Shown: piece after piece, positions 5,076-38,071 of the stretch
Position numbering within the stretch: the stretch's first letter is position 1
Layout: the number at the start of each line of letters is the position of its first letter
NCBI GenBank assembly: GCA_034429715.1
Contig: DAOUFR010000058.1
Location: forward strand, 7,811-71,810
Length of the DNA: 64,000 nt
Source: Dehalococcoidia bacterium
GTDB lineage: Bacteria > Chloroflexota > Dehalococcoidia > GIF9 > UBA5629
Reading direction: 5' to 3'
Position numbers and translations under genes: made by a program
Notes under the pieces: generated by a model
Databases searched by the model: none
Seen by the model: only the letters and a program-made list of their open reading frames with translations
What the model was told of the DNA's origin: nothing

Positions 5076-5099
5076 TGCTTTGTATTTCAGCAGAGAAAA

Positions 5100-5130
5100 G
5101 TCTGTTTCAGTGAAACATATACTGAAATGA
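5100..5130. terminator. possible hairpin (7-bp inverted repeat TTTCAGT-N9-ACTGAAA) in the convergent gap between iorB and the TetR gene
   Basis: The inverted repeat sits at 5105-5111/5121-5127. A T-rich stretch follows on the minus strand. A weak CC-UUCG-GG hairpin with a T-run lies at 5147-5166 on the plus strand. Confidence 0.3.
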
Positions 5131-5191
5131 GTAGCAGTAATATTAGGCCTTCGGGAAATTTTTCAGTATGGTTATCTGAATCGTCGTAAAA

Positions 5192-5917: not shown

Positions 5918-6000
5918 ATACAAGCCTACTAATATATATTTTGAAAAAGTTTAATATATGCGAGTTACAAAATCAAATTTATATAAATCAGTCATTCAGC

Positions 6001-6028
6001 TTGACATTTATTTACAGATTGTTATAAT
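6001..6028 (+). promoter_or_regulatory. sigma70-like promoter (TTGACA-16 nt-TATAAT) driving the AbfD-like genes
   Basis: TTGACA sits at 6001-6006 and TATAAT at 6023-6028, in an AT-rich divergent intergenic region. Confidence 0.5.
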
Positions 6029-6044
6029 GATTATTATAATGGAT

Positions 6045-6065
6045 ATGAATGAATAAGTCATTCAT
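6045..6065. promoter_or_regulatory. candidate TetR operator: inverted repeat ATGAATGA-N5-TCATTCAT
   Basis: 8-bp perfect arms sit at 6045-6052/6058-6065, just downstream of the -10 element. A further TCATTCA half-site lies at 5992-5998 next to the -35 element. Confidence 0.45.
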
Positions 6066-6178
6066 ATTATTACAGTAAGAGATCAGTATGGTTATCAAAT
6101 TAACTAATTTAATCATCCTATTTGCTGGCTCTTCTAATCACTGTCGCAAATTATTATTTAAATAGGCAGGAGAACAAG

Positions 6179-7642: not shown

Positions 7643-7727
7643 GACTCACGATTTAATAGCGGATTACAGATACGAAGCAGCTTAATAATATTATAACCCA
7701 AAACATTGGTAAAAGGAGGATAAATCA

Positions 7728-9206
7728 GTGATTTCATCCAGCGAATACAGAAAAAGGCTAAGCAAACTCAGGCGCAATATATATAATGATGGTAGTCTGG
7801 TGGACCGGGAATACGATCGATTGCAAGGCGCAATAAACGTACTGGCCAGAGGCTATGATATTGTGACTGATCCGGAGTTCAAGGAATATGAAGATATACT
7901 TACTGCTACTTCCCATTTGACTGGAGAAAAGATAAATCGCTTCAACCATATCCATCGTAGTGTCCAGGATCTGCTTGCTAAACAGAGAATGACGCGATTG
8001 ACAACGCAGCAGGTTGGAGGCTGTATCGCACGCTGCATGGGTATAGATTCAACCAATGCGCTTTCAGTTATAACATACCTTACTGACCAGAAATATGGCA
8101 CAGAGTACCATAAACGCTTCGAGGCTTGGCTAAAGGATTTCCAAATTAATGATCGCACAGCTTGCTGTGCTCAGACCGATGTTAAAGGTAACCGACCCTG
8201 GCGCCCACACCAACAAAAAGACCTCGACCTTTATCTAAGGGTCGTGGAGAAGAAGAGCGACGGCATTGTAGTCAGAGGCGCTAAGGTACATAACTCATGG
8301 GCCTCAGTTGTGGAGCAAATTAACGTTATACCGACCAGGGCATTAACGAAAGAAGAAGGAGACTGGGCGGTGGCTTTCAACGTTCCTGCAGATGCCGATG
8401 GCATCAAACAGATAGTTAGTGTTACCAAGGCAGATCTGCCTGAAGGTATGACGGGTCCTGGGCCCTTTGGAAGTGCTGATTCCATGACTGTATTTGATAA
8501 TGTATTTATTCCCTGGGACCACGTTTTTCTCTGCGGTGAGTCAGAAATGGGCGGCTATTTAGCGTTGCTTTTCGCTCTATATCACCGGCACAGCTATACT
8601 GGATGCAAGCCCGCCATGACTGACATCCTGACCGGAGCCGTGGCCCTCATGGCTGAGGTCAATGGTATCGAAAAGGAGCACCATGTAAGGGAGAAGTTGT
8701 CCGAAATGATCTGTACATCGGAACTCTGCTACGGAAGCGGCATCGCCGCCGCGGTCAATGCCTCGAAGTCACCTTCTGGAACTTTTATACCTGATATGAT
8801 GTATTGCAATGTTAGCCGCAGGCATGCGGGAATTAATATTTATCATGAGTATGACATACTGGCAGATATTGCAGGGGGTATGCCTGCAACTTTGCCACGT
8901 CCCAAGGACTGGACCAACGAGGAAACACGTCCCTTCATAGAGAAATACATGGCCCGTAATCCCGATGTCAAAGTTGAGGACGTGCTCAAGGCTTTCTATT
9001 TCGTACAGACCTTTTCCTGCACTGAGATTGCCGGGGTATCACAATATGCCGGTGTTCACGGAGGCGGTTCACCCAGAATGGAGCAGATAGCTATAATGGG
9101 AGCTTATAATCTGGAAAATCCAAAAAATATTGCCAAAAGGCTGGCCGGAATTGAAACGGGCAAACCGTACACATTCGATCGCCTGGGTATCACGCCTATC
9201 CTATGA
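7728..9206 (+). CDS. AbfD-family dehydratase, paralog 2
   Basis: It carries the same C-x3-C (GGCIARCMG) and H-x6-C (YHRHSYTGCKP) motifs. It is roughly 45% identical to paralog 1 by eye. AGGAGG precedes the GTG start. Confidence 0.6.
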   Translation: MISSSEYRKRLSKLRRNIYNDGSLVDREYDRLQGAINVLARGYDIVTDPEFKEYEDILTATSHLTGEKINRFNHIHRSVQDLLAKQRMTRLTTQQVGGCIARCMGIDSTNALSVITYLTDQKYGTEYHKRFEAWLKDFQINDRTACCAQTDVKGNRPWRPHQQKDLDLYLRVVEKKSDGIVVRGAKVHNSWASVVEQINVIPTRALTKEEGDWAVAFNVPADADGIKQIVSVTKADLPEGMTGPGPFGSADSMTVFDNVFIPWDHVFLCGESEMGGYLALLFALYHRHSYTGCKPAMTDILTGAVALMAEVNGIEKEHHVREKLSEMICTSELCYGSGIAAAVNASKSPSGTFIPDMMYCNVSRRHAGINIYHEYDILADIAGGMPATLPRPKDWTNEETRPFIEKYMARNPDVKVEDVLKAFYFVQTFSCTEIAGVSQYAGVHGGGSPRMEQIAIMGAYNLENPKNIAKRLAGIETGKPYTFDRLGITPIL

Positions 9207-18954: not shown

Positions 18955-19671
18955 ATGTCTTTAGTCGAATGGAGCGTTGACGAAAACATCGCGCTGCTCA
19001 CCATGAAGAATGGTGAGAACAGGTTTAATATGGGCTTCTGCAGCGAATTGCTCAAAGCGCTGGACGATATCGAGAAGAAGACCGCCGTCACCGCGCTTGT
19101 CGTGAAATCTGCCGACGAAAAGATCTGGTGCAACGGTATGGACCTCGACTGGCTCGTGCCCGCAATCGGACGCAAGGATCCCGAAGTGGAGAAATTTTTC
19201 GAGGTCCAGGATAGGGTTTACAGGCGCATTACCTTCTATCCCATGAATACGGTGGCGGCGCTGACCGGCCACGCGTTCGCCGGGGGCGCCATACTGGCCT
19301 GCTCTTTCGATTTTCTTTACATGCGCGCCGACCGCGGCTTCCTGTGTTTCCCCGAAGTCGATCTAAATATCCCCTTCCTGCCGTATATGGATGCTTTAAT
19401 CAAGAGGACCCTGCCCTCAACCAGAGTGCGCGAAGCCCAGTTGACCGGGAAGCGTTACACCGCTGCAGAGCTGGAGAAGCTCAACGTTGTGCGTAAAGCC
19501 TGCTCCTCGGCCGATGAGACCGTAAAAGAGGCGGTGGCCTTCGCCAAAAGCCTGAATAAGGGCAGAGGCATCGTGGGCGAGATGAAAAAAATCATGAACG
19601 CACGCATCGGAAATCTCATGGACAATGTGGTTAGACCTAAACTGGATACGGGCGGCGTTCCCATTAAATAG
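18955..19671 (+). CDS. enoyl-CoA hydratase/isomerase (crotonase) family protein
   Basis: It shows the crotonase fold signature. A GGAGG RBS is present. Confidence 0.65.
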   Translation: MSLVEWSVDENIALLTMKNGENRFNMGFCSELLKALDDIEKKTAVTALVVKSADEKIWCNGMDLDWLVPAIGRKDPEVEKFFEVQDRVYRRITFYPMNTVAALTGHAFAGGAILACSFDFLYMRADRGFLCFPEVDLNIPFLPYMDALIKRTLPSTRVREAQLTGKRYTAAELEKLNVVRKACSSADETVKEAVAFAKSLNKGRGIVGEMKKIMNARIGNLMDNVVRPKLDTGGVPIK

Positions 19672-19702: not shown

Positions 19703-21331
19703 ATGCGGAATACAGCGGTCCGGCTCTTGATACTGCCGGTTGTTTTCATATCAGCGATGCTGTGCGGCTGCGGCAGCCCCGCGATCGTGGGTTCACTGGT
19801 GAAGGTGCAGGCCGACAATGCTGTCGTCAACGGCGTAATCATCGATCAGGCCGGCTATATAGCTACCGGCAGCGGCGCGCTGGGCGACTCCACCTCTCTA
19901 TCTGTTGAGCTCAAGCCCGGGCAGAGCTACGAGGGCCGTTTGGTCTGCAGGGACAGTGAGAGGGACCTGGCCCTGCTTAAAATAGAGGCGCCTGAGCTCA
20001 AGTCGGCTTTACCGGGAGATTCGGACCTTGTGCACCAATGGGATGAGGTGACTGTGTGGGGATTCAAGCCCGGCGATGCCGCTCCGATAGAGTCAAAGGG
20101 CAGCGTGACTTCATTGCCCAAAGACGAGCAGATTACCTATTTACAGACCAACGCAGCCCTGGACCCATCGCTGGCGGGAAGCGCCGTATTGAACAAGGCG
20201 GGCGAGATGGTCGGCATGGTTTCATGGAATGCCGACCAGCCGGGTCGCGAAGGGTTCGCGCTGACATCCAACGAGATACAAAGAGTGCTGGATCAGGCCG
20301 GGGAAGCGGAATCCAACCCGCTTGCCGTCGCTTCGGTCGATTCTCCTTCGGTCTTCAGCGATCGCGCGGTGATATCCTGGCAGACCAACCGGCCGGCAAC
20401 CGGCCAGGTTGAGTTCGGATTAAAAGGCTCTTACGGTAACAAGACAGCGCTGGACGCGACCATGCTGAACACACATGCGGCCGTGCTGCAGGGATTGGTA
20501 CCTAAAACGGCCTATTATTTCCGGGTGCTTTCCGTCGACTGTTGCGGCAATGCTGTGGCTTCAAAGGGATATACGCTCACGACCACAGCGGCCGGCGCCC
20601 AGGCGGGCGAGTTCACGATCTCGAATGTTGACGTATACGATATTACCAGCACAGCCGCTTCGGTGAGATGGATTACCAGCAAACCGGCTACGGGCGTCGT
20701 CAACTACACTGCGGATAAAGAAACCGAATCCGACAGCGAAATGGACAATAGCTTTGTGTACGAACATAAATTCAGGTTGAACGGCCTGTATCCTCAGACG
20801 CGCTACAGCGTGGCCATCAAGTCCGAAACTGATTTCGATGAGTCTGCGCAACAGACGTTGAATCCTTTCACGACACCGCCGACCTCCCCTGTTTGCTGCA
20901 AGATGAATTGCAAGATACTGGATTTCTCTTTTAAAACTCTCCAGGGCGATGATTTTACAAACAAAGACATCGCGGGAAAGAAGGTATTTATTGTTTTCAC
21001 CAAGACCACCTGCCCGAACTGCATGAAGCAGGCTCTTTTCCTCAACGACGTCTATCGCGACTGGCCGAAGGGGACCGATATGATGATGTTCATGGTGGCC
21101 AGCAGCGAGAAGCAAGCTGATGTCGAGGAGTGGATCAAGAAATACGGACTGGTCATGCCCGTTTATATAGATCCGACTGCGAAGCTGGTCAGCGGGTGCC
21201 AGTTCAGGACCATCCCCACGGCGCTCTTCCTGGATACGGGATCGGTCATAAGGGATTATAAGAGCGGCGGATTCGGTAATAGAAAGGATATGGAAGCTGC
21301 CCTGAAGTATTTTTATGAACAAGAGCGATAG
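19703..21331 (+). CDS. lipoprotein with an HtrA/trypsin-like domain (apparently catalytically dead), 2 x FN3 domains and a C-terminal TlpA-like thioredoxin domain
   Basis: A lipobox (AMLCGC) is present. The trypsin-like region aligns to HtrA with the catalytic His replaced by Gly (YIATGSGAL) and the catalytic Ser by Ala (DPSLAGSAV), while the Asp is kept (RDLALLKI). Two FN3/PAP-N-like repeats (VISWQTNRPATGQVEFG..., ASVRWITSKPATGVVNY...) follow. The redoxin domain carries CPNC. Confidence 0.6.
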   Translation: MRNTAVRLLILPVVFISAMLCGCGSPAIVGSLVKVQADNAVVNGVIIDQAGYIATGSGALGDSTSLSVELKPGQSYEGRLVCRDSERDLALLKIEAPELKSALPGDSDLVHQWDEVTVWGFKPGDAAPIESKGSVTSLPKDEQITYLQTNAALDPSLAGSAVLNKAGEMVGMVSWNADQPGREGFALTSNEIQRVLDQAGEAESNPLAVASVDSPSVFSDRAVISWQTNRPATGQVEFGLKGSYGNKTALDATMLNTHAAVLQGLVPKTAYYFRVLSVDCCGNAVASKGYTLTTTAAGAQAGEFTISNVDVYDITSTAASVRWITSKPATGVVNYTADKETESDSEMDNSFVYEHKFRLNGLYPQTRYSVAIKSETDFDESAQQTLNPFTTPPTSPVCCKMNCKILDFSFKTLQGDDFTNKDIAGKKVFIVFTKTTCPNCMKQALFLNDVYRDWPKGTDMMMFMVASSEKQADVEEWIKKYGLVMPVYIDPTAKLVSGCQFRTIPTALFLDTGSVIRDYKSGGFGNRKDMEAALKYFYEQER

Positions 21332-21351: not shown

Positions 21352-21390
21352 AAAGGCCGGCGTCCCCCGGGGGACGCCGGCCTTTAATTT
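21352..21390. terminator. bidirectional rho-independent terminator (perfect 14-bp stem GGCCGGCGTCCCCC/GGGGGACGCCGGCC)
   Basis: The stem sits at 21355-21382 and is flanked by TTTAATTT on the plus strand and TTTCTC on the minus strand. It lies between convergent genes. Confidence 0.75.
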
Positions 21391-21395: not shown

Positions 21396-23147
21396 TTAAG
21401 ACCTGAACACGAAGCTGAGAGCGCCTGCGAGATCGATAGTGTCACCATCTTTAATCGCCTGCCTGCCTGTGCCCTTGATGGAGGACCCGTTCAGCCTGGT
21501 GCCGTTGGTGCTGCCACGGTCCTCGATGTAATACTGGCCGTTTTCATAGGAGACTGTGACATGTTGCCTGGATATAAGGTCTGCCTTATCCGGGGAAACC
21601 ATGTGCTGGAAGTCCCTTCGTCCCAGCGGCGCGTCACCCGCCAGCGAAAGTTCGCTTCCGTTGGAGGCAACGAATTTGGCCGCTGGACCGACGGGTACCG
21701 GCGAGGTTTTGGGAGAGCCTGTTGCCGGCAGAGTGGCTACGGGTGAAGTGACAGCAGGCATCGTGCCGGAGCGCCCGCCGCCGTAATGAACGGCCTGCGC
21801 AGCAGGTTTCCTCAGCAGAAGGATGACTATGATTATGGCGGCTGCGGCCAGCAGCGCAACGAGCAGGATATAGGGTAGCCACCATGACAGCGTGCCATTA
21901 CTGCTGCCGGCGGTGCTGACCGGGTCGGTGGCGGTGGAGGCGGCTTCGGTTGTGCCGCTATAGGTGCCGCCGGTGTAATAGGTGCTGCCGACATAGGGCG
22001 CCACCGTTACCGTGGTGCTGGCCACCCCCGAGCCTGCGCTGTTCGACGCGGTAAGTGTATAAGTGGTCGTGTAGGCGGGAGTTACAACGTACACTCCCGT
22101 ATTGGGCACCGAGCCAACCGAAGGCGATATGCTGACATTAGCCGTGTTGTTGACCGTCCATGACAGTGTGGATGATTGCCCCGGCTGGATATAGCTGGGA
22201 TTGGCCGTGAACGAGCTGATCACAGGCGCATAGACCGGAGAAGGTGTGGACGGCACCACCACGACAGGATAGCTACGATAGTAAGGTGTTACCCATGAGT
22301 TGGAGTACCACCGGTACCCGTAGGGATAGTATGGTGCAAAGGGATTATACGGATTGTATGGTGGCCTGTGTGGTGGCGGTGGCCCAGGGGGCGGCGGCCC
22401 GGGAGGCGGTGGCCCGGGAGGCGGTGGCCCGGGAGGTGGCGGCCCAGGAGGTGGTGGTCCTGGAGGAGGAGGCAATGGTGGAGGTGGAGGAGGTGGCATC
22501 GGCGGAGCAGGGAAAGAGTCCGGTCCCGGCACCGATATCGGTGGATGGACTTGGACTGTAATTGGCGATGAAGGTGGCAGAGGGGGTGGCGGGAGCGCAT
22601 CACCCGCAGGTGGTTCAGCCTGGGCGACCTGAATAGGCGGCTGAAGCTCCTCAGACACCTGTTCTGAAGAGGTAATAGCAGGGTCTTCAATTGCAGAATC
22701 CTGCGATGGGACGATAGGCTCGGAACCGGTTGCAACCGTGGTCTCGATCACCGGTTCAGGCAAAGGTGGAGGTGGTGGTGCGACCAACTCGGTAGTGGAC
22801 GCAACCGTGGTCTCGACCACCGGCGCGGGCGGCTCAGGAGTAGATGTAACCGTAGTCTCGACCACCGGAGCTACCGGATCAGGTGCAGACGCAACCGTGG
22901 TCTCGACCACCGGAGCTACCGGCTCGGGTGCAGATGCAACCGTGGTCTCTGCTACCGGCGCGGGTGGCTCAGGAGTAGATGTGATCGTGGCCTCTTCCAC
23001 AACAGCCGGGGTGGTTGTCTCTGTGGCTATGGAAGTTTCCGATGGCGCCGGTGCATCGTCCGCAGAGGCAGGTATCAGCGGCAGCATTAAGACAGAGCAG
23101 ACAAGAAGCGCTGCCGCCAGGAACTGAACAATTTTTTTAGCAGTCAT
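21396..23147 (-). CDS. membrane-anchored FHA-domain protein with a repetitive Pro-rich ectodomain, an Ig/PKD-like domain, one TM helix and a C-terminal cytoplasmic FHA domain (583 aa)
   Basis: A signal peptide is followed by about five copies of the 15-aa repeat ETTVASAPEPVAPVV, then (PPPGP)x6, a Tyr/Trp-rich segment and an Ig-like domain. The TM helix is LPYILLVALLAAAAIIIVILLL. The FHA motif is GRR...ISRQH...GSTNGTRLNG. A GAGGAGG RBS is present. Confidence 0.75.
   Translation of the reverse strand: MTAKKIVQFLAAALLVCSVLMLPLIPASADDAPAPSETSIATETTTPAVVEEATITSTPEPPAPVAETTVASAPEPVAPVVETTVASAPDPVAPVVETTVTSTPEPPAPVVETTVASTTELVAPPPPPLPEPVIETTVATGSEPIVPSQDSAIEDPAITSSEQVSEELQPPIQVAQAEPPAGDALPPPPLPPSSPITVQVHPPISVPGPDSFPAPPMPPPPPPPLPPPPGPPPPGPPPPGPPPPGPPPPGPPPPGPPPPHRPPYNPYNPFAPYYPYGYRWYSNSWVTPYYRSYPVVVVPSTPSPVYAPVISSFTANPSYIQPGQSSTLSWTVNNTANVSISPSVGSVPNTGVYVVTPAYTTTYTLTASNSAGSGVASTTVTVAPYVGSTYYTGGTYSGTTEAASTATDPVSTAGSSNGTLSWWLPYILLVALLAAAAIIIVILLLRKPAAQAVHYGGGRSGTMPAVTSPVATLPATGSPKTSPVPVGPAAKFVASNGSELSLAGDAPLGRRDFQHMVSPDKADLISRQHVTVSYENGQYYIEDRGSTNGTRLNGSSIKGTGRQAIKDGDTIDLAGALSFVFRS
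22381..22470. repeat. 6 x 15-bp tandem repeat (GGCCCGGGAGGCGGT) encoding PPPGP repeats on the minus strand
   Basis: The repeat units are directly visible in sequence. Confidence 0.8.
22738..23025. repeat. about 6 x 45-bp tandem repeat (four near-perfect copies at 22801-22980) encoding 15-aa ectodomain repeats
   Basis: The unit gcaaccgtggtctcgaccaccgg[a/c]gc... recurs at 45-nt period and is in-frame coding within the FHA583 gene. Confidence 0.8.
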
Positions 23148-23176: not shown

Positions 23177-24724
23177 CTATATTTTAAAGGTGATACTCAA
23201 TTTATCGGCCAGCTCAATGACATCGCCGTCCACGAGGGGTTGTTTGCCGCTGTCGCGGATCTCCGAACCGTTGAGCCTGGTGCCGTTTGTGCTGCCGGGA
23301 TCCTCGACGTAGTATTTTCCGTCCTCATACCATACGTTGATGTGCTGCCTTGAGATGAACGATGCTCTGTCCGACGGCAGCAGTTTTTCAAAGTCCTGGC
23401 GTCCGAGCGTCCTGGTATTGCCGGCCAGCAGCATCTCCCCGCCGTCGGGCATGATAAGTTTGGCGGGAGGAGCTTCTGTGATGGATGTGGACGCCCCCGA
23501 TGTGCCCGCAGTCGATGTAGCGGCGCTGGATGTAGCGGTACCCGCGCTTGCAGCCGATGTACGTGGCGACTTGGGAGAGCGGGGCTTTTTCACCATCATA
23601 ACGACTATTATTATGGCGGCTATAGCCAGCAGCGCCAGAAGTCCGTAAAGAAGGTAGAAGGGTTGCTCGACGGTGACGGTAACGGCTGCCGTCTGCGTCG
23701 TGCCGTCGATATAAGTGGCGGTGAGGCTATATGTAGTCGTTTGATTGGGCGCTACCATCGCTGTGCCCACGGCATCGAAATTACCCAGCCCGTCGATGTA
23801 TACCTGTAAGGCGGCGGGAGCGTTCCATGAAAGCGTGGTGGACTGTCCGGACTGTATGGTGGGTTGCTGCACGCTCAACGCAGGCGGCACCCTCGGTATA
23901 ACGTTAATGGTGGCGGAAGACGTCACCGTGCTTCCCGAGCTGCCCGTAGCCGACAGTGTGTAAGTGGTGGTCGCGCCGGGTGTGACAGTTGTCGATCCGG
24001 ATGTCCCCACCGTACCTATGCCGGGTGATATGATAACGCTGCTGGCGTTGCTCGTGGTCCAGGTCAGTGTGACGGTTTGTCCGACGTCTATAGACGATGC
24101 ATTTGCGCTGAAAGAATTGATCACGGGTTGATAGATCGGCCTGGGCGACGGCCCGCTGTAAGGTGAAATGCTGCCGCGTGCGTAATTGAAGCTCAGAGTA
24201 CGCTCCGACCAGGAGAAGCCGGAGTTGTACCACATCTTCCAGACATAGAGCCCGTCGGGATCCCATGACTCAGCACTGAACGGCCCGATGCGCCATACGC
24301 CCGCGTAAGGCCTGTACCATCTGTAACACAGCCAGTGCCCGTAGGGCGTGGTCCCTGACGGATAGTATTCCCACAGGTAGAAGTACCCCGGGCCGTTAAA
24401 GGAAACAAGCAGGTAGCACAGGTCGTTACGATAAAGATTGTAGAGCGTTTGCCCGTAGCTGGTTACCAGGTAGGCGTTTACGATGGACCCTGCTGCTCCT
24501 GCCGGAGGGGATGGCGGCACCGTCATCTGAAGGCTGGGCCAGGTCTGGTTGTAAGTGTCAACACCGACCGGCGGCTCGACCATTTCCCCGCCTTCGTCCG
24601 GCGGCTGCCAGCTTTCATCGGGATTAATTGGCGGTGATGGCTGTGCCTGAGCCGGCGAAAATACTGCAGCTGCGGCTGATAAAACCATGCACGCGATCAG
24701 CAGCGGTAAAACTATCTTTTTCAT
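23177..24724 (-). CDS. membrane-anchored FHA-domain protein with the Tyr/Trp-rich ectodomain and two Ig-like domains (515 aa)
   Basis: A signal peptide is followed by the shared motif block (YFYLWEYYPSG...WLCYRWYRPYAGVWRIGPF). Two Ig/PKD-like domains follow (PVINSFSANASSIDVGQTVTLTWTT..., PALSVQQPTIQSGQSTTLSW...). The TM helix is LLALLAIAAIIIVVMMV, and the FHA domain is C-terminal. Confidence 0.75.
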   Translation of the reverse strand: MKKIVLPLLIACMVLSAAAAVFSPAQAQPSPPINPDESWQPPDEGGEMVEPPVGVDTYNQTWPSLQMTVPPSPPAGAAGSIVNAYLVTSYGQTLYNLYRNDLCYLLVSFNGPGYFYLWEYYPSGTTPYGHWLCYRWYRPYAGVWRIGPFSAESWDPDGLYVWKMWYNSGFSWSERTLSFNYARGSISPYSGPSPRPIYQPVINSFSANASSIDVGQTVTLTWTTSNASSVIISPGIGTVGTSGSTTVTPGATTTYTLSATGSSGSTVTSSATINVIPRVPPALSVQQPTIQSGQSTTLSWNAPAALQVYIDGLGNFDAVGTAMVAPNQTTTYSLTATYIDGTTQTAAVTVTVEQPFYLLYGLLALLAIAAIIIVVMMVKKPRSPKSPRTSAASAGTATSSAATSTAGTSGASTSITEAPPAKLIMPDGGEMLLAGNTRTLGRQDFEKLLPSDRASFISRQHINVWYEDGKYYVEDPGSTNGTRLNGSEIRDSGKQPLVDGDVIELADKLSITFKI

Positions 24725-24891: not shown

Positions 24892-26004
24892 TTAATGGTT
24901 GGATCGGAACTTCAGACTGGCCTTGCCGGCCATCTCGATAACGTCCCCGTCTTTCAATTCCAGTGGGCCTGAGTCACGAATACTGGCAGCATTGACGGCA
25001 GTGCCGTTGGCGCTGCCCATGTCTTCGATGAAAGCCTTCCCGTCTGTGAAGCTGATCTTAAAGTGCTGCTTTGATATCATCCCCAGCTCATCCAGTCCCA
25101 GCGACCTGGCGACCTGGGCGCGTCCGATTATCTCGCTTTCTTCACCCAGGCGAATCTTCAATCCGTTGGGTAATTCCAGGACGGCCCTGGCTGTGCCGTG
25201 CAGCGGCGCTTTTGGTGTAATACCCGGATGCTCGAGCAATTCCACCAGCGGCTGCTGCGTCATATTCCGGGCGTAATTCTGTTCGCGCAGGCGGCGTCGC
25301 CCATACAGTGCCAGGAGCACAATGACGACTATGGCGGAAGGGGCAATCAGCAGGAAAAGGGGATTGGTTATAAATTTCAGCAGGTTGTTGTCCGCTGTGT
25401 CAGGCTGTTCAGGTGTCGAGGGGGTGGCTGGCTGAGCCGGCTCTTCCGTGCCCTTGACATAGTTCCAGAAGACAAGGTGGCTTCTCTGCGCTTCGCTGCT
25501 GCCTGCCGCCCATTGTCCGTTTCCGTAAAAGAAGAGCCTGTAGATATGCTGGCCCTCCAGCTCGTCCTCGCCCGGCCGGAACGGCCCGAACCTCCATCGT
25601 CCCTGCTCTTTCAACTGCCATTTGTAGGCAATCCATCTGCCCTGGTCATATCTGTCCGACGGATAGTATTCATATATATACAACCAGCCCGGCATATTGA
25701 CATCGACATCGAGGTACCATTGCTCGTCGCCCGTGAAGGTGTCGCCGCCTTCGGCGGATATCCCATGTATGGTCGCAACCAGATCAGGCGATTCGCCTGA
25801 AGGCAGTGCAGTAGTGCTGTGCAATATGAAATTAACGGGCGGCTTAATCTCATTATGCTGGGTATCATCCATGGGATCCGGTATGGTGAAGTTGTCGGTA
25901 GGCGCCCCCATGGCATACGCGCATACATGTGTGAGGGCTACTGCGCTGAGGGAAGCGAACAGGACGGCCAGCGCAAATATCAATGCCGGTACCGGCCGTT
26001 TCAC
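24892..26004 (-). CDS. membrane-anchored FHA-domain protein with the Tyr/Trp-rich ectodomain (370 aa)
   Basis: A signal peptide is followed by the shared block (WLYIYEYYPSD...WIAYKWQLKEQGRWRFGPF). The TM helix is LFLLIAPSAIVVIVLLALY, and the FHA domain is C-terminal. The GTG start overlaps the kinase stop (GTGA). Confidence 0.75.
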   Translation of the reverse strand: MKRPVPALIFALAVLFASLSAVALTHVCAYAMGAPTDNFTIPDPMDDTQHNEIKPPVNFILHSTTALPSGESPDLVATIHGISAEGGDTFTGDEQWYLDVDVNMPGWLYIYEYYPSDRYDQGRWIAYKWQLKEQGRWRFGPFRPGEDELEGQHIYRLFFYGNGQWAAGSSEAQRSHLVFWNYVKGTEEPAQPATPSTPEQPDTADNNLLKFITNPLFLLIAPSAIVVIVLLALYGRRRLREQNYARNMTQQPLVELLEHPGITPKAPLHGTARAVLELPNGLKIRLGEESEIIGRAQVARSLGLDELGMISKQHFKISFTDGKAFIEDMGSANGTAVNAASIRDSGPLELKDGDVIEMAGKASLKFRSNH

Positions 26005-27017
26005 TTAGATACCCCCACTTCTTTCACCTCGCATTCGTTTGCAGACAGAAGTGCTGACCGCATGGCCGTGGCGCTGGCAAATCTGCTGCCCGGTGAAAAC
26101 ATAATGGCCTGGGCCAGGCAGCGTGATGTCCTTGCCGAGATACCCGCCGAGATCATGTAGTCCGCCACCTTGCCGGCCTCGGTGTAGCTCCGCGGCCAGT
26201 TGGTGCGGATCAGCTCGGTGCACAGATCGTTGGGCTGTCTGAGCGTGAGCAGGTAGATACAGGTCTGCGCCAGGCCGCACAGGTCGCAACGCTGGTCGCT
26301 CTCGCCGCCTATGAATAATTCAGGTATATCGAAACCCTTGTTGGCTATCTGGGTGAAGGGATCCGTCTTGACCGTGTCCCTTTTCATGCTCTCCAGGCTT
26401 TTGGCCGTGCCGAAGTCGATCAGTTTGATGCCGCCGTTTCCGCTGAGCATGATGTTCTTGGGATTGACGTCCCTGTGCACAATACCCGCGGCGTGGATAT
26501 AGGCCAGGGCGTCCAGCGCCTGTCCGGCCCAGGCCAGGAGCTTCTGCTCACCGGCCGATGTCCTGGGAGAGGACGACATGACAGGTTCACCTGTTACGAG
26601 CTCCAGTACCAGGTGGAATTCCCCTTTGTAATAGAAATCATCAAGGTATGTGACTATATTGGGATGCTGCAGCCTTTTGAGGAAAGCGGCTTCCTGGCGT
26701 AGCTTGTCCAGATAAACATTGTCCATGGTGGTGCCCCTGCGGGGCGTCTTGATGATGCATTTCTTACCGCTGGTGCGGTCCCTGGCCAGCCAGATGTTTG
26801 CCATGCCTCCTTGTTTGAAGGCCGGTGCTTTAAGCTCGTAGCGGCTGTTGATGCGGTGCTTGCGTTCAGGCTGGGCCTGCTGTTGCGTCGGCCTGCCCTG
26901 GCGCCGGGCTGAGGCGTTCGCCTTGTGCCGCTGGACCGCCTGGATAATAGCCACTGTGACCGGTATGCTGGTGAAGATCAGTGCAAAGACTATGACAAAG
27001 ATGGTCGGATCGTCCAT
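26001..27017 (-). CDS. Ser/Thr protein kinase (Hanks-type, atypical motifs) with an N-terminal TM helix
   Basis: Subdomain motifs are present: ANIWLARD...KCIIK (Lys), HRDVNPKNIM (catalytic loop) and DFGTAK. The N-terminal TM helix is IFVIVFALIFTSIPVTVAIIQAV. The ATG overlaps the PP2C stop by 1 nt (TGATG). The track ORF is extended spuriously upstream. Confidence 0.8.
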   Translation of the reverse strand: MDDPTIFVIVFALIFTSIPVTVAIIQAVQRHKANASARRQGRPTQQQAQPERKHRINSRYELKAPAFKQGGMANIWLARDRTSGKKCIIKTPRRGTTMDNVYLDKLRQEAAFLKRLQHPNIVTYLDDFYYKGEFHLVLELVTGEPVMSSSPRTSAGEQKLLAWAGQALDALAYIHAAGIVHRDVNPKNIMLSGNGGIKLIDFGTAKSLESMKRDTVKTDPFTQIANKGFDIPELFIGGESDQRCDLCGLAQTCIYLLTLRQPNDLCTELIRTNWPRSYTEAGKVADYMISAGISARTSRCLAQAIMFSPGSRFASATAMRSALLSANECEVKEVGVSK

Positions 27018-27820
27018 CAGACTGTTTTTACCCCCGTCTTTGCCGACACCAGTGCCTGCCAGGAGGGGAGGCCGCCGGGTTGGGCGATGATAACCGATAT
27101 GTTGTCGGGGCCGCCGGCCAGGTTGGCCCGGGAGATCAGGTCCGCGCAGGCCTGCCGCGGACTCTGCGAGGCAAGCACCGTTTCCTCGATTCTGCCAGCA
27201 GGGAGCACCCCGCACAGGCCGTCCGAGCACAGCAATATGTTGTCCCCGGCATAAAGCTTGATTTGTATCAGGTCCGGCAGGCTATTATCATTGTAACCCA
27301 GCACGCGTGTTATCTCGTTGCGGCGCGGATGTGTCAGGGCTTCCTCCGCCGATATATCACCGGTATCTACCAGCTCCTGCACCACGGAATGGTCCGTTGT
27401 GACCTGAATGATCTCCCTGGTGTTGATAATGTAACAGCGGGAATCCCCTATGTGGGCAACGTACATATCCTGCCCTGTAATAAGGGCCGCGGTGAGAGTG
27501 GTGCCCATACCCTGCAGCGACTTTTCTGTTGCAGCTTCGAGGACGGCGTTGTTAGCCTTGCTGAAAGCCGAGGCCATCAGCGGCAATCCGGGCGCCGTCT
27601 GCCGAGCCAGCAGTCCGGAGATACATTCGACCTGGAAAATCCTGATAGCCAGGTCGCTGGCGATTTCCCCTGCTTCGTGTCCGCCCATGCCGTCCGCCAC
27701 CGCGAACAGACCGGCAGATACCGTACCTGAATTAGTATGCAGGTCGAAGGTGCTGTAGAAAACACTGTCTTCGTTGAGTTTTCTCACCAGGCCGGTGTCC
27801 CAGCCGTAACCTATCTCCAA
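27017..27820 (-). CDS. PP2C-family Ser/Thr protein phosphatase
   Basis: Metal-binding motifs are present (NEDS, FAVADGMGGHEAGEIAS, DG...D). An AAGGAG RBS precedes the TTG start. Confidence 0.85.
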   Translation of the reverse strand: MEIGYGWDTGLVRKLNEDSVFYSTFDLHTNSGTVSAGLFAVADGMGGHEAGEIASDLAIRIFQVECISGLLARQTAPGLPLMASAFSKANNAVLEAATEKSLQGMGTTLTAALITGQDMYVAHIGDSRCYIINTREIIQVTTDHSVVQELVDTGDISAEEALTHPRRNEITRVLGYNDNSLPDLIQIKLYAGDNILLCSDGLCGVLPAGRIEETVLASQSPRQACADLISRANLAGGPDNISVIIAQPGGLPSWQALVSAKTGVKTV

Positions 27821-27842
27821 TCAAATCTCCTTCATTTGCATA

Positions 27843-28334
27843 TTAGCTCAACCGGAAGATGAGTGTGGCTCCCGGCTGTCTGGCCAGCTCTATACTATCT
27901 CCGTCCCTGAGAGCCTGCCTGCCTTTATGGTGGATATCGATATTGTTTACCCGTGTGTGATTGGTGCTTCCGGTGCCGTCGCGCCCGTGGTCCTGGACAA
28001 AATAAGTGCCGTTCTCGCGCGTAACGAGCAGATGCTGTCTGGAGATGCTCATCAGCGCATCTTGCGAGAGTTTGCCCTCGAAGTTACTGCGCTGAATGAA
28101 CTGGGAATTGTCCGCCAGAGTGATCTCCTCGCCTCCCGGCATGATCATCCTGGCCACGGCTCCCTGCGCTGCAGCTTCCGCAGCCTCTTCCATGACGGTG
28201 TCGTTGCTTGTACATTCCTTTTCGTCCGCCAGGTAATGCCCGCAGCTGTAACAGAAAAAGCTGCCGGCCCCGTTCAAGCCCTGGCAGGCCGGGCAGATGA
28301 CGCTGACGCTGATTACCTCTTCCATTACGATCAC
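27843..28334 (-). CDS. zinc-ribbon + FHA domain protein (163 aa), first gene of the kinase/phosphatase operon
   Basis: The N-terminus carries CPACQG...CYSCGH (4-Cys zinc ribbon), and the C-terminus an FHA domain (SRQHLLV...GSTNHTRVNN). Confidence 0.7.
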   Translation of the reverse strand: MIVMEEVISVSVICPACQGLNGAGSFFCYSCGHYLADEKECTSNDTVMEEAAEAAAQGAVARMIMPGGEEITLADNSQFIQRSNFEGKLSQDALMSISRQHLLVTRENGTYFVQDHGRDGTGSTNHTRVNNIDIHHKGRQALRDGDSIELARQPGATLIFRLS

Positions 28335-28364
28335 ATCATTCTAGTCTGCTGAAAAACCGACTGC

Positions 28365-28393
28365 TTGACAGCTTTCTGACGAATACCTAATAT
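28365..28393 (+). promoter_or_regulatory. sigma70-like promoter (TTGACA-17-TAATAT) for the FHA/winged-helix regulator gene
   Basis: TTGACA sits at 28365-28370 and TAATAT at 28388-28393, in a divergent intergenic region shared with the kinase operon. Confidence 0.45.
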
Positions 28394-28483
28394 AAATCTG
28401 ACATATATATTCAATGTGATGGTTGCCCTTGATATATTATACTGCAAGAGGAAATACAGCCTGCATATAGCAGGAGGCCCGTT

Positions 28484-29167
28484 GTGGCTTTTATTATAGT
28501 CAAGAAAGGCGATGCCGAAGACATCGGCAAGATTTTTACCCTCAGGCAGGCTGCCACGGTAGTCGGCCGGCGTACTCCCCAGTATAAGCCGGATATCGAA
28601 TTAAACGACGAGGCGGTATCCAGACGGCATTGCGAGATACTGGAAAAAGAAGGCCATTATCAGATAAGAGACCTGGGCAGCACGAACGGGACCGTGCTCA
28701 ACGACGACAGGATACTGTCGGGCAGGTTATATGACCTGAAACACAATTGCAAGATCGGGCTTGGTATGGCAGTAGGGCCGGCGCATTCCCTTTTGATATT
28801 CAAAGAGACGGAGAGCACCAATTTACTGGGGGGAAAGGGGGCAGGAGCAAGCCAGAAAGCTGTAGCGATGGATGTTAGCTGGCTCAAAATTGATGAGGCC
28901 AAGAAAGAGGTGCATGTGGACGGCGAGCCTGTGAAACTATCGCGCAAAGAGTACGAATTACTTAGTTATCTCTACGAAAACGCCGGTGTGGTCTGCCTGC
29001 GCGACGAGATTATCAAAGCCGTATGGTTCGATAGTCTGGACCCGGCCGCCATATCGGATGCGACGCTCGACCAGCTCGTGCACCGACTGCGGGAGAAGAT
29101 AGAACCCGACACCGCCAACCCCACCCGCATTATCAGCCGCAAGGCCTTCGGATACATGCTGGTATAA
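28484..29167 (+). CDS. FHA domain fused to an OmpR/PhoB-type winged-helix DNA-binding domain (transcription factor)
   Basis: The N-terminal FHA domain is GRR...VSRRHCEI...GSTNGTVLND. The C-terminal trans_reg_C-like region is VHVDGEPVKLSRKEYELLSYLYENAGVVCLRDEI...FGYMLV. AGGAGG precedes the GTG start. Confidence 0.7.
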   Translation: MAFIIVKKGDAEDIGKIFTLRQAATVVGRRTPQYKPDIELNDEAVSRRHCEILEKEGHYQIRDLGSTNGTVLNDDRILSGRLYDLKHNCKIGLGMAVGPAHSLLIFKETESTNLLGGKGAGASQKAVAMDVSWLKIDEAKKEVHVDGEPVKLSRKEYELLSYLYENAGVVCLRDEIIKAVWFDSLDPAAISDATLDQLVHRLREKIEPDTANPTRIISRKAFGYMLV

Positions 29168-31178: not shown

Positions 31179-32429
31179 CTAAATGCCGCCCTCGATACAG
31201 TATTCCCGCAGTGTGTTAAGGGCTGCGAAAAACTCCTTCATCATGGTGCCCACCGTGTACATACCGCGCTTTGTGACTGAAATTATGCTGTTTTTCTCCT
31301 GGATAACACCGGCAATTTTAAAGAATAGCAGCTCCGCCCATATCCTGGCGTGGATATCCGAATCGAAGCGCTGTTTGAACTGCTGCGTGCTCAGGCTCAT
31401 ACCGAATAACCTGGTCAGCATGTAGTAACGGTATTGCTCGGTAGCGGAGAGATGACGTGTGCGGACTATGGGCAACCTTTCTTCCGCGATCAGCTTATGG
31501 TAGCCGTCCAGCGAGAAGGAATTGACCAGGAAATCGCCTCCCAGGAAGCTGACGGACCCGGCGCCGACGCCGATATAGTCATCGTAGTCGATGATATATT
31601 CGTCGATCATGAGGTCGCCGCGCGAAAAGCACCAGGCTGTCGAAGCTTTGTATCCGCCGTCCATCAGCTCCTGCAGGATTATCTCGTAATATTGCTTTTC
31701 GCGTTTGGTATCCACCCGGCGGAATTTTTTGGTCAGCGCATCCAGTTTATGTGGAGAGGGCATGAGCGGGTAGAAAGTGGCCTGGTCGGTGCCGAGGTCC
31801 TTGAAGATTTTTATATCGGAGCGGAACTGCTCCGGTGTCTGTGTGGGGAAGTTGAACATGAGGTCCACGTTGACCGTATCGAATTTGCCCTGCGCCAGCT
31901 TAAGCTTCTGTATGGAGTCTTCGCCCTTGAAAAGCGTCCTGCCCATGGCTTTAAGAAGGGAGTTATCGAAGCTTTGAACACCGATGGAAAGCCGGTTGAC
32001 TCCCATCTGTTTCAGCTGATCAACGGTGTCAGGCGTCAGCTCGCGCGGTGTGGTCTCAAGCGAGATGCGCCTGATCTCGAATTTCGATCTGAGGAAATCG
32101 ACGAAGCCGGACAGCTCGTCCATGAGGACGGTGGGCGTGCCGCCCCCGAAATAGAAGTCGTTGAATTTGAAACCCAGCGCGGCGTACAGGTCGACTTCCC
32201 GGCGCAGGTCTGCGAAGTAAGCGCGGGCTTGATCCTCCTTGAACAGGTAACGGTTGAAGCAGCAGAAGGGACACAGGGTGCGGCAGAAAGGGATGTGGAT
32301 ATAGAGGGATACCCTGTCCCCCCGTATAATGCCCTCTGAAGCGATGCGGGAAAGGTCCGCATCGCCTGTAAACCTGAGGAACTTCTGGCCTTCGTAGCGG
32401 ACGACCGAGCCGGCAAATAAACTGATCAT
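31179..32429 (-). CDS. radical SAM enzyme, HemN/HemW-like (oxygen-independent coproporphyrinogen-III oxidase family)
   Basis: The CxxxCxxC motif (IHIPFCRTLCPFCCF) sits in a HemN-like N-terminus, and a HemN C-terminal domain follows. Confidence 0.7.
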   Translation of the reverse strand: MISLFAGSVVRYEGQKFLRFTGDADLSRIASEGIIRGDRVSLYIHIPFCRTLCPFCCFNRYLFKEDQARAYFADLRREVDLYAALGFKFNDFYFGGGTPTVLMDELSGFVDFLRSKFEIRRISLETTPRELTPDTVDQLKQMGVNRLSIGVQSFDNSLLKAMGRTLFKGEDSIQKLKLAQGKFDTVNVDLMFNFPTQTPEQFRSDIKIFKDLGTDQATFYPLMPSPHKLDALTKKFRRVDTKREKQYYEIILQELMDGGYKASTAWCFSRGDLMIDEYIIDYDDYIGVGAGSVSFLGGDFLVNSFSLDGYHKLIAEERLPIVRTRHLSATEQYRYYMLTRLFGMSLSTQQFKQRFDSDIHARIWAELLFFKIAGVIQEKNSIISVTKRGMYTVGTMMKEFFAALNTLREYCIEGGI

Positions 32430-32480
32430 GTTTATTGAATGTGCAGCAGCTTAAAATTATCTGTGGTCGAGTTTACCAAG

Positions 32481-33089
32481 CTAAGCAAGCAATCCGTACA
32501 AAATGGTTTGAACCATTCTGTCCCCGGCAGCCGTTAAGTCGAAGCTGCCATCTTTTAAACACCATTCATACAGGATACCCCGATAACTCATCATGATAAA
32601 CCGGGTGATTTCCGTAGCGTCCGTATCGTCTTTTAGTATGCCGACTTTTAAACACTCATCTATCTGTTCAAGCACAGTATTAAACAATATGCCCCTCTCT
32701 GCTGCCATCACAGGATCTTTTCTGCCGGCGCTGATCTGACTCTGCATAACCACTTTAATAAAATCCACACCCAGATTGTCCATGTACCGGGATACAGATG
32801 CGCATAAGAATTTGAGCTTGTCGATCCGGCTATCTATTTCAGGTAGGACAGGAATTACTTCATCTCTAATTAATTTATTTATCGCCATGAAGTGCTCCAT
32901 GATAACCGCGTCTTTGGACTTGAAATGGATATAGAATGTCCCCAACGAAACGCCGGATTTTCTGCAGATCTCACTGATGGTAACCCTGTCGTATCCCTTT
33001 TTTGAGAACAGCGTAAGGGATGTCTGGTAAATCTTCTTGTGCGTAGCCAGCGACTGTTTTTTTCGATGAGTGGACTTTTTATTATTCAT
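32481..33089 (-). CDS. TetR-family transcriptional regulator
   Basis: The HTH is TLFSKKGYDRVTISEICRKSGVSLGTFYIHFKSKD. Confidence 0.75.
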   Translation of the reverse strand: MNNKKSTHRKKQSLATHKKIYQTSLTLFSKKGYDRVTISEICRKSGVSLGTFYIHFKSKDAVIMEHFMAINKLIRDEVIPVLPEIDSRIDKLKFLCASVSRYMDNLGVDFIKVVMQSQISAGRKDPVMAAERGILFNTVLEQIDECLKVGILKDDTDATEITRFIMMSYRGILYEWCLKDGSFDLTAAGDRMVQTILYGLLA

Positions 33090-33154
33090 GATAGGTACCT
33101 TCGCTATACAGTTAAACTATTATATTTGTAACTAACGTGAATTACAATTCAGGC

Positions 33155-33206
33155 TTGACAATATTTTGATAGTAGAATAGAATACATTCACTGAATATAT
33201 TCTATT
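33155..33206 (+). promoter_or_regulatory. sigma70-like promoter (TTGACA-17-TAGAAT) overlapped by the inverted repeat AATAGAATA-N13-TATTCTATT (candidate TetR operator)
   Basis: TTGACA sits at 33155-33160 and TAGAAT at 33178-33183. The inverted-repeat arms sit at 33176-33184 and 33198-33206. Confidence 0.45.
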
Positions 33207-33221
33207 ATTAGGAGGCTGTTG

Positions 33222-33974
33222 ATGGATTTGGGATTAAAAAACAAAACTGCTTTAGTTACAGGCGCCGGGAGTGGTGTGGGGCGAGAGGTAACGCGAGTGC
33301 TATGTTCAGAGGGGGCCATTGTTGCCGCTGCCGATATAGATTTGAAGAAAGCAGAGCAAACGGTTGAGTTGATGCAAGGTCTTAATGGCAGGGCGTTCGC
33401 CTATGAAATGGATGTGATCAACTGGAATAAGGTGCAGGATACCGTAGCCCTTTTTATAAAGAAAGCAGGTCATATAGATATTCTGGTCAATAATGCAGGC
33501 TATGGAGTATATAAGACCTTTGATACCACAACTTATGATGACTGGATGACCGATATCAATGTTAATCTCATCGGATCGCTGAACTGCGCAAGGGCGGTGA
33601 TTTCTCATATGTTGGAAAATAAATATGGGAAGATTGTAAATGTAGTATCCGATGCTGGAAAGACTGGTGAACGCTTTTTAGTAACTTATTCTGCGGCAAA
33701 AGCGGCCGTTATCGCTTTTGCTAAAGCGCTGGCGAAGGAAACAGGCAGGAGCAATATCAACGTCAATTGTGTTGCGCTCAGCAGTATTAAGACGCCGCTT
33801 ATTTTACCTTTTCTTACTCCGGAAGCCGAGAAGAAGATGATCAAGAGTTATCCGCTTGGTAGATTGGGGCTTCCGGAAGACCCTGCGAGTTTAATTGTGT
33901 TCCTGGCGTCCGACAGGGCGTCATGGATAACGGGGCAGGCTTTTTCGGTCAATGGCGGATATGCCATGGTTTAG
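33222..33974 (+). CDS. short-chain dehydrogenase/reductase (3-oxoacyl/3-hydroxyacyl-CoA reductase-like)
   Basis: TGAGSGVG marks the NAD(P) site and the catalytic YxxxK lies in YSAAK. Confidence 0.75.
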   Translation: MDLGLKNKTALVTGAGSGVGREVTRVLCSEGAIVAAADIDLKKAEQTVELMQGLNGRAFAYEMDVINWNKVQDTVALFIKKAGHIDILVNNAGYGVYKTFDTTTYDDWMTDINVNLIGSLNCARAVISHMLENKYGKIVNVVSDAGKTGERFLVTYSAAKAAVIAFAKALAKETGRSNINVNCVALSSIKTPLILPFLTPEAEKKMIKSYPLGRLGLPEDPASLIVFLASDRASWITGQAFSVNGGYAMV

Positions 33975-34002
33975 GCTTTCAAATAGAAGGAAGAAGGTTG
34001 TG

Positions 34003-35280: not shown

Positions 35281-35303
35281 GTTATCTGAGGAGGAGAAGG
35301 AAG

Positions 35304-38052: not shown

Positions 38053-38071
38053 GTAATTACAATATATAAAT

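Follow-up and report, generated by a model that had tools for sequence, protein, structure and literature searches.

The 64,000-nucleotide (nt) stretch analysed here (the window; contig DAOUFR010000058.1) comes from an uncultured member of the Dehalococcoidia and carries, at 19703..21331 on the + strand, a gene for a four-domain lipoprotein of 542 amino acids (aa) plus stop in which a predicted dead HtrA-type protease domain is fused to a thioredoxin-fold domain. The domain order is a lipoprotein signal, an S1C/HtrA-fold domain, two purple-acid-phosphatase-N (PAP-N)/fibronectin type III (FN3) domains and a ResA/TlpA-class thioredoxin (Trx) domain with a CPNC motif. The open reading frame (ORF) has alternative in-frame starts at 19685 (GTG) and 19697 (ATG), with the ATG at 19703 being the likely start because orthologues begin at the methionine of MRNTA...; an orthologue that is 92% identical to the query (P0001) has the same length. 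Pfam matches were obtained for Trypsin_2 (query residues 43-172, E = 5.7e-17), for Pur_ac_phosph_N and fn3 (two stretches each, residues 219-294 and 306-381) and for AhpC-TSA/Redoxin (residues 404-534, E about 5e-12), while the NCBIfam matches to Do/DegP/DegS and ResA models were all sub-threshold. An AlphaFold2 (AF2) model of the full protein built from 60 family sequences reached a mean predicted local distance difference test (pLDDT) score of 85 with a predicted template modelling (pTM) score of 0.60. The first-pass annotation of this DNA, made by reading the sequence, had described a lipoprotein with an HtrA-like domain, two FN3/PAP-N-like domains and a TlpA-like CPNC domain, a description that these searches bear out, and the product is predicted to be an extracytoplasmic, membrane-tethered surface lipoprotein of uncultured Dehalococcoidia.

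The protease-like domain (aa 30-205; 19790..20317, + strand) is spanned throughout by the Pfam Trypsin_2 model and is matched in phmmer searches by DegQ, DegP and DegS at 2e-14 and weaker. Foldseek comparison of residues about 30-205 with the protease domains of DegS-deltaPDZ and HTRA1 gave target TM-scores of 0.75-0.81 and root-mean-square deviations (rmsd) of 2.4-3.0 A at 25-28% identity, a structure-based comparison in which the fold matches and the catalytic triad is lost. At the catalytic His position the query has Gly58 (codon 19874..19876, + strand), the catalytic Asp is retained as Asp88 (codon 19964..19966, + strand), the nucleophilic Ser is replaced by Ala158 (codon 20174..20176, + strand) and Ser156 lies at the position of the oxyanion-hole Gly193. 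The three catalytic assignments, first made by eye, were recovered with both HMMER and MAFFT. In the phmmer alignment to a DegQ chain from the PDB, 'gyiatgsGalgd' lies opposite 'giiitndHvirn', 'dserDlallki' opposite 'dsetDlavlki' and 'aaldpslAgsavln' opposite 'aainpgnaggalvn', the DegQ chain being the S193A crystallisation variant of a protein whose wild type has GNSGG. MAFFT alignment with five true HtrA outgroups, all of which have H, D and GNSGG, placed the residues in the same columns as phmmer, and phmmer, MAFFT and Pfam agree on the catalytic columns. The only His in the query domain, H111, is not conserved, and there is no substitute general base. No PDZ domain was found in the target protein by Pfam at E <= 1, whereas the outgroup HtrAs do carry PDZ families, and the TIGR02037 (Do/DegP/DegQ/DegS) model scored 65.1 bits against a cutoff of 416.2 with the other NCBIfam HtrA models likewise far under cutoff. 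The protein thus has the fold of the HtrA family and has neither the triad, the PDZ domain nor the curated score. As judged from sequence, the N-terminal domain has a chymotrypsin fold of HtrA descent and is unable to act as a serine protease, because the nucleophile has been lost family-wide and the His and the oxyanion-hole Gly have been lost in most members.

The loss of the active site extends across the family, for which counts out of 60 refer to protein clusters and counts out of 25 to intact species-representative genes. A complete His-Asp-Ser triad was present in none of the 60 homologue clusters and in none of the 25 intact species-representative genes. The column at the His position reads Q17 H14 G8 N7 S6 R3 K3 D2 over the 60 clusters, the Asp is kept in 53/60 and the Ser position holds Ala in 56, Thr in three and Ser in one, with the sole Ser member having Gln at the His position. 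In the two most divergent species-representative genes (L027 and L029) G-R-Y-G-A is found where HtrA has G-N-S-G-G. Position 193 is non-Gly in 41/60, Glu being present in 10 of these, and in MamO a Glu at position 193 has been argued to block the active L1 conformation sterically (PMC4794232). In a neighbour-joining tree of the protease-like domain rooted on HtrAs the members form a monophyletic group borne on a long stem, the ancestral state being H-D-A, such that the change from Ser to Ala falls on the stem, with at least four independent clade-level losses of His and only sporadic losses of Asp; the query clade is hypervariable at the His position (G/S/N/D/Q/R/K). Estimates of the ratio of non-synonymous to synonymous substitution rates (dN/dS) by the Nei-Gojobori method over eleven close pairs were 0.15-0.30 in the dead protease domain, against 0.07-0.27 in the FN3 domains and 0.05-0.15 in the Trx domain, and the mean pairwise identity of the dead domain (58%) is similar to that of the FN3 domains. 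The suspicion raised in the first-pass annotation that this is a pseudo-protease has therefore held up, and the domain reads as a genuine, ancient pseudo-protease kept by purifying selection. HtrA-derived pseudoenzymes are known from few systems (MamO/MamE, RsgI9), to which this family adds a clean, datable case with an order of decay in which loss of the nucleophile came first and was followed by repeated loss of the general base and sporadic loss of the Asp, with the fold still under selection.

The Trx domain (aa 407-542; 20921..21328, + strand) was delimited by Pfam, NCBIfam, phmmer, Foldseek and residue invariance. Its CxxC motif is C437-P-N-C440 (nt 21011-21022) and its cis-Pro motif is T503-I-P505, with C437, C440, T503 and P505 invariant (60/60) and both motifs also present in 25/25 species-representative genes; Q443 is likewise invariant in the family (60/60 and 25/25). 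The NCBIfam ResA model matched at E = 1.8e-14 (54 bits against a cutoff of 170), and with residues 407-517 phmmer returned ResA (1.3e-11), StoA and pneumococcal Etrx1/2 with the CxxC and the 'TIPT' cis-Pro loop in register. A domain-only AF2 model (pLDDT 91, pTM 0.86) had ResA as its closest Foldseek neighbour (target TM-score 0.88-0.91, rmsd 1.6-1.8 A over about 135 residues), followed by Etrx1/2, StoA, SdbA, Mycobacterium tuberculosis (Mtb) DsbE/F, TlpA and CcmG, with the first peroxiredoxin (Bcp1) at rank 47. The domain has the features of the TlpA/ResA/CcmG-like class, namely a thioredoxin fold, a CxxC at the start of helix 1, a cis-Pro loop and predicted extracytoplasmic tethering, and lacks those of the ResA/StoA subfamily, which are a Glu three residues after the CxxC, a score above the NCBIfam cutoff and a gene context of cytochrome maturation or sporulation, resBC, ccdA and ccs genes all being absent within about 10 kb. 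By sequence and model it is thus assigned to the ResA/TlpA/CcmG class, and with its invariant motifs it may be redox-active. The name peroxiredoxin given by some sources was rejected, as the PxxxTxxC motif is absent, with Ile430 at -7, Lys434 at -3 and a CxxC instead.

The signal peptide (19703..19771, + strand) was read from the sequence and is supported by family conservation. The N-terminus reads MRNTAVRLLILPVVFISAM-LCGC and ends in a lipobox L20-C21-G22-C23 (nt 19760-19771) of which C23 is the predicted lipid-modified Cys, with 55/55 full-length family members keeping both the L-[SC]-[SAG]-C pattern and the Cys in it. The n-region, h-region and lipobox [LVI][ASTVIC][GAS]C expected for Sec export and signal peptidase II (Sec/SPII) processing are all predicted, and AF2 models residues 2-21 as a helix of low pLDDT. 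In some clades (P0019, P0020, P0013 and P0012) the signal peptide has a twin-arginine-like motif, for example NRRSFFAAIF in P0019, which is absent from the query and its clade (MRNTAVRLL), and the export route may differ between clades, being twin-arginine translocation (Tat) in some and Sec in others.

Between the two main domains lie FN3/PAP-N-like domain 1 (aa 206-298; 20318..20596, + strand), which is matched by Pfam Pur_ac_phosph_N and fn3 and is all-beta in the AF2 model, and FN3/PAP-N-like domain 2 (aa 299-392; 20597..20878, + strand), which is matched by fn3 at 306-381 and by Arylsulfotran_N and is modelled as a beta-sandwich. The PAP-N-like FN3 repeats of the family match repeats, present in up to 25 copies, in giant multi-FN3 proteins of 1,000-6,000 aa (P0076-P0224), which suggests that the FN3 pair derives from a widespread surface-protein repeat type. 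A Cys-rich linker, PVCCKMNC (aa 393-406; 20879..20920, + strand), was identified from the family alignment and follows the second FN3 domain; in the domain-only AF2 model it is packed on the Trx core with a pLDDT of about 89.

Beyond the CxxC and the lipobox there are four further invariant cysteines, C82, C281, C399 and C499 (60/60 and 25/25). C82 lies six residues ahead of the old catalytic Asp, where HtrAs usually carry Gly, C281 sits in the predicted F-G loop (VDCCGN) of the first FN3 domain, C399 is in the linker and C499 lies six residues ahead of the cis-Pro. C398 (Cys in 45/60), C403 (Cys in 55/60) and C280 are frequent without being invariant, and C280/C398 was considered and dropped as a covarying pair since inspection of the alignment shows no co-variation. 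It is probable that C82-C281 and C399-C499 either staple domain junctions or make up a second redox or metal site. A structural disulfide outside the active site is found in TlpA of Bradyrhizobium japonicum. The Cys-rich linker and CxxC also fall in a stretch of about 300 nt (window 20851-21150) that is 85% identical to the closest relative (L004) as against 93-97% on either side, with the excess divergence mostly synonymous (dS 0.51 vs 0.13 in the protease part), and this may be a small tract exchanged by recombination or gene conversion.

Among 5.8 billion proteins searched, about 62 clusters (45-92% identity) share the four-domain architecture, and the matches that come after them are ordinary HtrA proteases with PDZ domains at E about 1e-10. 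Scanning one genome per species gave 27 full-length loci, all in metagenome-assembled genomes of uncultured Dehalococcoidia/Dehalococcoidales/Chloroflexota from sediment, peat, fen and lake. In these sequence searches the fusion was found only within one Dehalococcoidia lineage, in agreement with the original remark that the architecture is unusual. A full-length family profile, used to look for the fusion elsewhere or for an intact triad, returned as its best 150 matches mostly giant multi-FN3 proteins together with three family representatives (P0047, P0108 and P0162), a search dominated by the FN3 region that therefore says nothing on other fusions. A word-index search with the linker and Trx domain gave four proteins, none of them a genuine standalone close relative. 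P0228 was rejected as a standalone thioredoxin, as every gene on its contig (L038) is split by frameshifts and it is an assembly artefact, while P0225 and P0226 begin inside the family sequence and are read as fragments of the same protein. The target ORF is interrupted in L018 and L032, probably through assembly errors rather than as pseudogenes. The constant syntenic block in which the gene lies (see below) indicates that it is vertically inherited, single-copy and lineage-specific, as far as can be judged from the loci compared, and it diverges faster than its cytoplasmic neighbours (41-48% identity in the deepest comparisons vs 60-79%). No description of an HtrA-thioredoxin fusion was found in the literature searched. 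Since pseudo-HtrA proteins and thioredoxin lipoproteins are each known already, the fusion is an undescribed combination of well-known parts. The extracytoplasmic thiol-redox biology of the Chloroflexota/Dehalococcoidia, which are abundant uncultured anaerobes of sediment and peat, is essentially unexplored, and a conserved single-copy surface oxidoreductase offers a reasonable entry point to it in the Dehalococcoidia.

Each half of the protein can be set against known systems. With HtrA/DegP/DegQ/DegS (MEROPS S1C) it shares the extracytoplasmic location and the two-barrel chymotrypsin-type fold, keeping the motifs GDSD, QTNAAxxP and DxAxxK (which holds the catalytic Asp), but unlike these proteases it is lipid-anchored, has no PDZ domain and is fused to two FN3 domains and a Trx domain, with no family member having a full triad and most having lost the His and Gly193. 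MamO and the inactive MamE paralogues of magnetotactic bacteria are also HtrA-derived pseudo-proteases (PMC4794232), resembling the target family in having an HtrA fold with a degenerate triad, a non-Gly residue at 193 and a non-catalytic role kept by selection, and the groove of MamO still binds a peptide (PMC4794232). MamO differs in that it keeps His and Asp, has Thr at the Ser position and a surface di-His metal site, adjoins the active MamE and lacks FN3 and Trx domains; the two are of independent evolutionary origin. The NCBIfam MamO model matched the target at 1e-11 with 43.8 bits against a cutoff of 800, which is no better than the generic HtrA matches. A MamO-like di-His metal site in the target was rejected as there is no conserved His pair, the only column with at least 30% His besides the old catalytic one being position 111 (33%). 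The S1C-like domain of RsgI9 from Clostridium thermocellum binds cellulose and acts as an extracellular sensor on a membrane-anchored protein (PMC12203970). Its structure (PDB 7sjy) was found among the structural neighbours of the target protease-like domain at Foldseek ranks 17 and 27, although in RsgI9 the domain belongs to an anti-sigma factor, has a polysaccharide ligand and is accompanied by an NTF2 domain, and there is no redox domain.

The Trx domain resembles ResA, StoA, TlpA and CcmG in its fold, in having the CxxC and cis-Pro (TIPT) in register and in its membrane-tethered, extracytoplasmic location. It differs from ResA/StoA in having an invariant Gln in place of the Glu three residues after the CxxC, a position at which substitution of Glu alters the properties of the active site in ResA/StoA and at which Etrx1/2 have Ser (PMC3914529), and in having Thr/Ser in place of the usual Trp before the CxxC. 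Unlike the ResA-type proteins it also has an additional Cys-rich N-terminal segment and C499, has no ccdA, resBC or ccm genes nearby (within about 10 kb) and lies C-terminal to three other domains instead of directly after the anchor. Etrx1/Etrx2 of Streptococcus pneumoniae are surface thioredoxin lipoproteins (PMC3914529) in which a TlpA-like thioredoxin is likewise fixed by a lipoprotein anchor to the outer face of a single membrane and the ResA-type Glu is also absent, with the target sequence matching 4HQS (Etrx) at E = 8e-9. However, Etrx1/2 are single-domain proteins encoded with CcdA and MsrAB2 partners, whereas the target has three added domains and no such neighbours.

In DsbC, DsbG and PDI a non-catalytic polypeptide-binding or oligomerisation domain is coupled to a CxxC thioredoxin domain. 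The likeness to the target is one of functional analogy only, as the binding modules are not homologous. We put at about 0.5 the probability that the target is a lipid-anchored extracytoplasmic thiol-disulfide oxidoreductase in which the dead protease domain acts, by analogy, as a recognition, holding or oligomerising module supplying clients. The dead domain would have been repurposed as a non-catalytic recognition module whose former substrate groove binds extended or unfolded polypeptide or a specific partner, and, like HtrA protease domains, it may also form oligomers. It would select and hold the client while the CxxC domain reduces, oxidises or isomerises the client cysteines, the FN3 pair serving as a spacer or arm, such that the whole would be a 'hold-and-exchange' machine functionally like DsbC/DsbG or PDI. 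A role as a binding module is plausible by analogy with MamO and RsgI9, and DegP in which the active-site Ser has been mutated retains chaperone activity, which is counted here as a further precedent.

Several observations weigh against this reading. At a pTM of 0.60 the inter-domain geometry of the AF2 model is uncertain, and the Trx domain lies at the membrane-distal end, a position that makes recharging by a membrane CcdA awkward if the protein does not fold back. The near-invariant Trp175 lies in the L2 loop of the protease-like domain and may fill the S1 pocket, preventing canonical peptide binding. The structural neighbours of the Trx domain span reductases (ResA, Etrx and CcmG) and oxidases (SdbA and Mtb DsbE/F), because of which the direction of the redox reaction cannot be inferred. 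No CcdA/DsbD, Msr, cytochrome-maturation or HtrA genes were found within about 10 kb of the target in the window and two related loci, and none of these gene types was found among the 20 larger window ORFs scanned; with no redox or HtrA neighbours, and conserved neighbours that are generic cytoplasmic enzymes, the context indicates no partner or client.

Among the alternatives, the one that survives best, unlikely as it is, would have the dead domain as purely structural, being a membrane-proximal pedestal or homotrimerisation platform that presents one to three Trx domains on FN3 stalks with all specificity residing in the Trx domain. The hypervariable His position in the query clade and the poorly conserved active-site loop are as expected if the groove is unused, the dN/dS of the dead domain is above that of the Trx domain, and the motifs shared with HtrA (GDSD and QTNAA) are read here as mainly structural, a reading made from sequence. 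Yet the family also has its own invariant or near-invariant residues in C82, W175/N176 and G181-R-E-G184, suggesting a specific function beyond folding, and a two-barrel domain of 175 residues would be an expensive pedestal where the FN3 domains already give a stalk.

It is rather improbable that the dead domain is instead the regulatory partner of an active HtrA encoded elsewhere, in the manner of MamO and MamE, with the Trx domain reducing clients for degradation ('reduce-then-degrade'). MamO activates MamE-dependent proteolysis and pairs of inactive and active HtrAs have arisen repeatedly (PMC4794232), and reduction is reported to render a substrate degradable by a Deg protease, in the case of HhoA and PsbO (PMC3446894). 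The dead domain is under purifying selection and HtrA protease domains are the oligomerisation unit of these enzymes, both of which would suit such a partnership, but the target has no PDZ domain for coupling to HtrA-type regulation. Moreover, MamO and MamE are co-located whereas no HtrA gene is adjacent to the target in any locus examined, and the family, set on a long stem away from the HtrAs, did not arise by recent duplication of an active neighbour.

A role in metal handling is very unlikely. In this case the additional cysteines (C82, C281, C399, C499 and the CCxxxC motif), with or without the CxxC, would bind Cu, Zn or Fe in a metallochaperone of the Sco/TlpA type or a MamO-like binder, and the seven invariant or near-invariant cysteines beyond the lipobox, a weak Pfam match to SCO1/SenC (E = 0.017) and the NCBIfam MamO match at 1e-11 could be cited for it, MamO being a dead HtrA domain turned metal binder (PMC4794232). 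Set against this, the MamO match is far under cutoff and no better than that to generic HtrA, the protease-like domain has no conserved His pair, the nearest structures to the Trx domain are ResA, Etrx and StoA and not Sco, and the four invariant cysteines are spread over four different domains or segments. Finally, a peroxiredoxin or an active protease with a non-canonical nucleophile, as implied by JGI-style names ('peroxiredoxin', 'S1-C subfamily serine protease'), by the AhpC-TSA match at 5e-12 and by the Thr in three clusters and Ser in one at the nucleophile position, is highly improbable given the missing PxxxTxxC peroxidatic motif, nearest structures that are CxxC oxidoreductases with Bcp1 only at rank 47, Ala at the nucleophile in 56/60 with the His position of the Ser member occupied by Gln and with the Thr and Tyr members being scattered tips, and a lone query His (H111) that is unconserved.

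Taking the oxidoreductase with a client-binding dead domain as the preferred reading, a bolder version of it can be put forward tentatively, as possible but doubtful, in which the protein is the first natural fusion of an HtrA-derived holdase and a thiol-disulfide oxidoreductase, being a single-chain, tethered 'capture-and-exchange' machine for folding or repair at the surface of these anaerobes, like DsbC or PDI and invented independently from a protease. The fossil groove, possibly with Cys82 beside it, would grip unfolded exported proteins, and the distal CxxC on its arm of two FN3 domains would then reduce or isomerise their cysteines. With a redox domain hard-wired to the dead domain, the use of the fossil groove becomes a testable hypothesis. 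If hold-and-exchange is true the family represents an independent invention of the DsbC/PDI design principle, and if false an ordinary lineage-specific domain shuffle.

The target lies in a block of genes whose order is kept in the related loci, comprising a PEMT-like methyltransferase, TrhA/PAQR, a metallo-beta-lactamase (MBL) fold hydrolase, a 3-hydroxyacyl-CoA dehydrogenase (3HCDH), a crotonase-family gene and the target, with FHA genes downstream. The crotonase-family gene (18955-19671) stops 14-32 nt upstream of the target with no terminator between, the two genes overlapping by 4 nt in a 50%-identical relative, and they are likely to be co-transcribed as judged from this arrangement. A functional link between them was considered and rejected, as the whole block of PEMT, TrhA, MBL, 3HCDH and enoyl-CoA hydratase (ECH) genes is conserved and is cytoplasmic or generic and reflects general synteny. 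In the clade at 50% identity the target is followed by another crotonase-family gene (L001 11696-12406), which places it between two ECH paralogues there, and LigD/Ku genes have been inserted ahead of the FHA genes.

Downstream of the target, a hairpin at 21352..21385 with a perfect 15-bp GC-rich stem, a CCGG loop, AAA as its 5' flank and TTTAATTT as its 3' flank was identified by folding and locus comparison as a candidate bidirectional intrinsic terminator. The region folds at -34 kcal/mol (z = -4.2), with 0/200 shuffles folding as well, and 15/15 related loci have a 12-16 bp hairpin at the same place, its stem showing compensatory changes. A consensus terminator scanner did not report the 21352-21385 hairpin, which was detected by direct folding and by the comparison of loci. 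It fits a bidirectional terminator shared by the target and the convergent FHA gene, and the arrangement of the target opposite the FHA genes across such an element is as first proposed.

Two FHA genes, known from the ORF list and the syntenic locus, are convergent with the target at 21396-23147 and 23177-24724 on the - strand. The products of both are large membrane proteins in which the FHA domain is C-terminal and cytoplasmic, with an N-terminal signal or transmembrane segment and an immunoglobulin-like extracellular part. In the protein encoded at 21396-23147, TTVASxPEPVAPVVE units of about 15 aa recur in tandem and a (PPPPG)x7 run is also present. Over this stretch of repeats and prolines (about 22270-22960) the relative L004, which is 92-94% identical, has a shorter or different sequence, the extracellular part thus being variable in length. 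The rest of the FHA island (24892-29167) encodes a further FHA protein, a Ser/Thr kinase, a PP2C phosphatase, a small FHA protein and a regulator with FHA and Trans_reg_C domains, the Pfam labels being read from the syntenic locus L004.

The 20 larger ORFs scanned in the window point to an anaerobic acyl-CoA metabolism and include HGD-D dehydratases, AMP-ligases, HpaB/AbfD-like proteins, a pyruvate:ferredoxin oxidoreductase (PFOR)-like enzyme and FrhB. Positions 1-8000 and 32000-40000 have a lower G+C content (43-48% vs about 55%) with a strong positive GC skew and encode an FrhB-like protein, a PFOR-like enzyme, two HpaB/AbfD-like paralogues, a thiolase, an AMP-ligase, an acyl-CoA dehydrogenase and a family III CoA-transferase; these blocks may be acquired islands or differently expressed operons. 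Positions 44313-63247 form a dense cluster for anaerobic acyl-CoA and aromatic-acid metabolism, with three HGD-D (2-hydroxyacyl-CoA dehydratase/benzoyl-CoA reductase-like) subunits, five AMP-binding ligases, major facilitator superfamily (MFS) transporters, an M20 peptidase and a phosphotriesterase-family protein.

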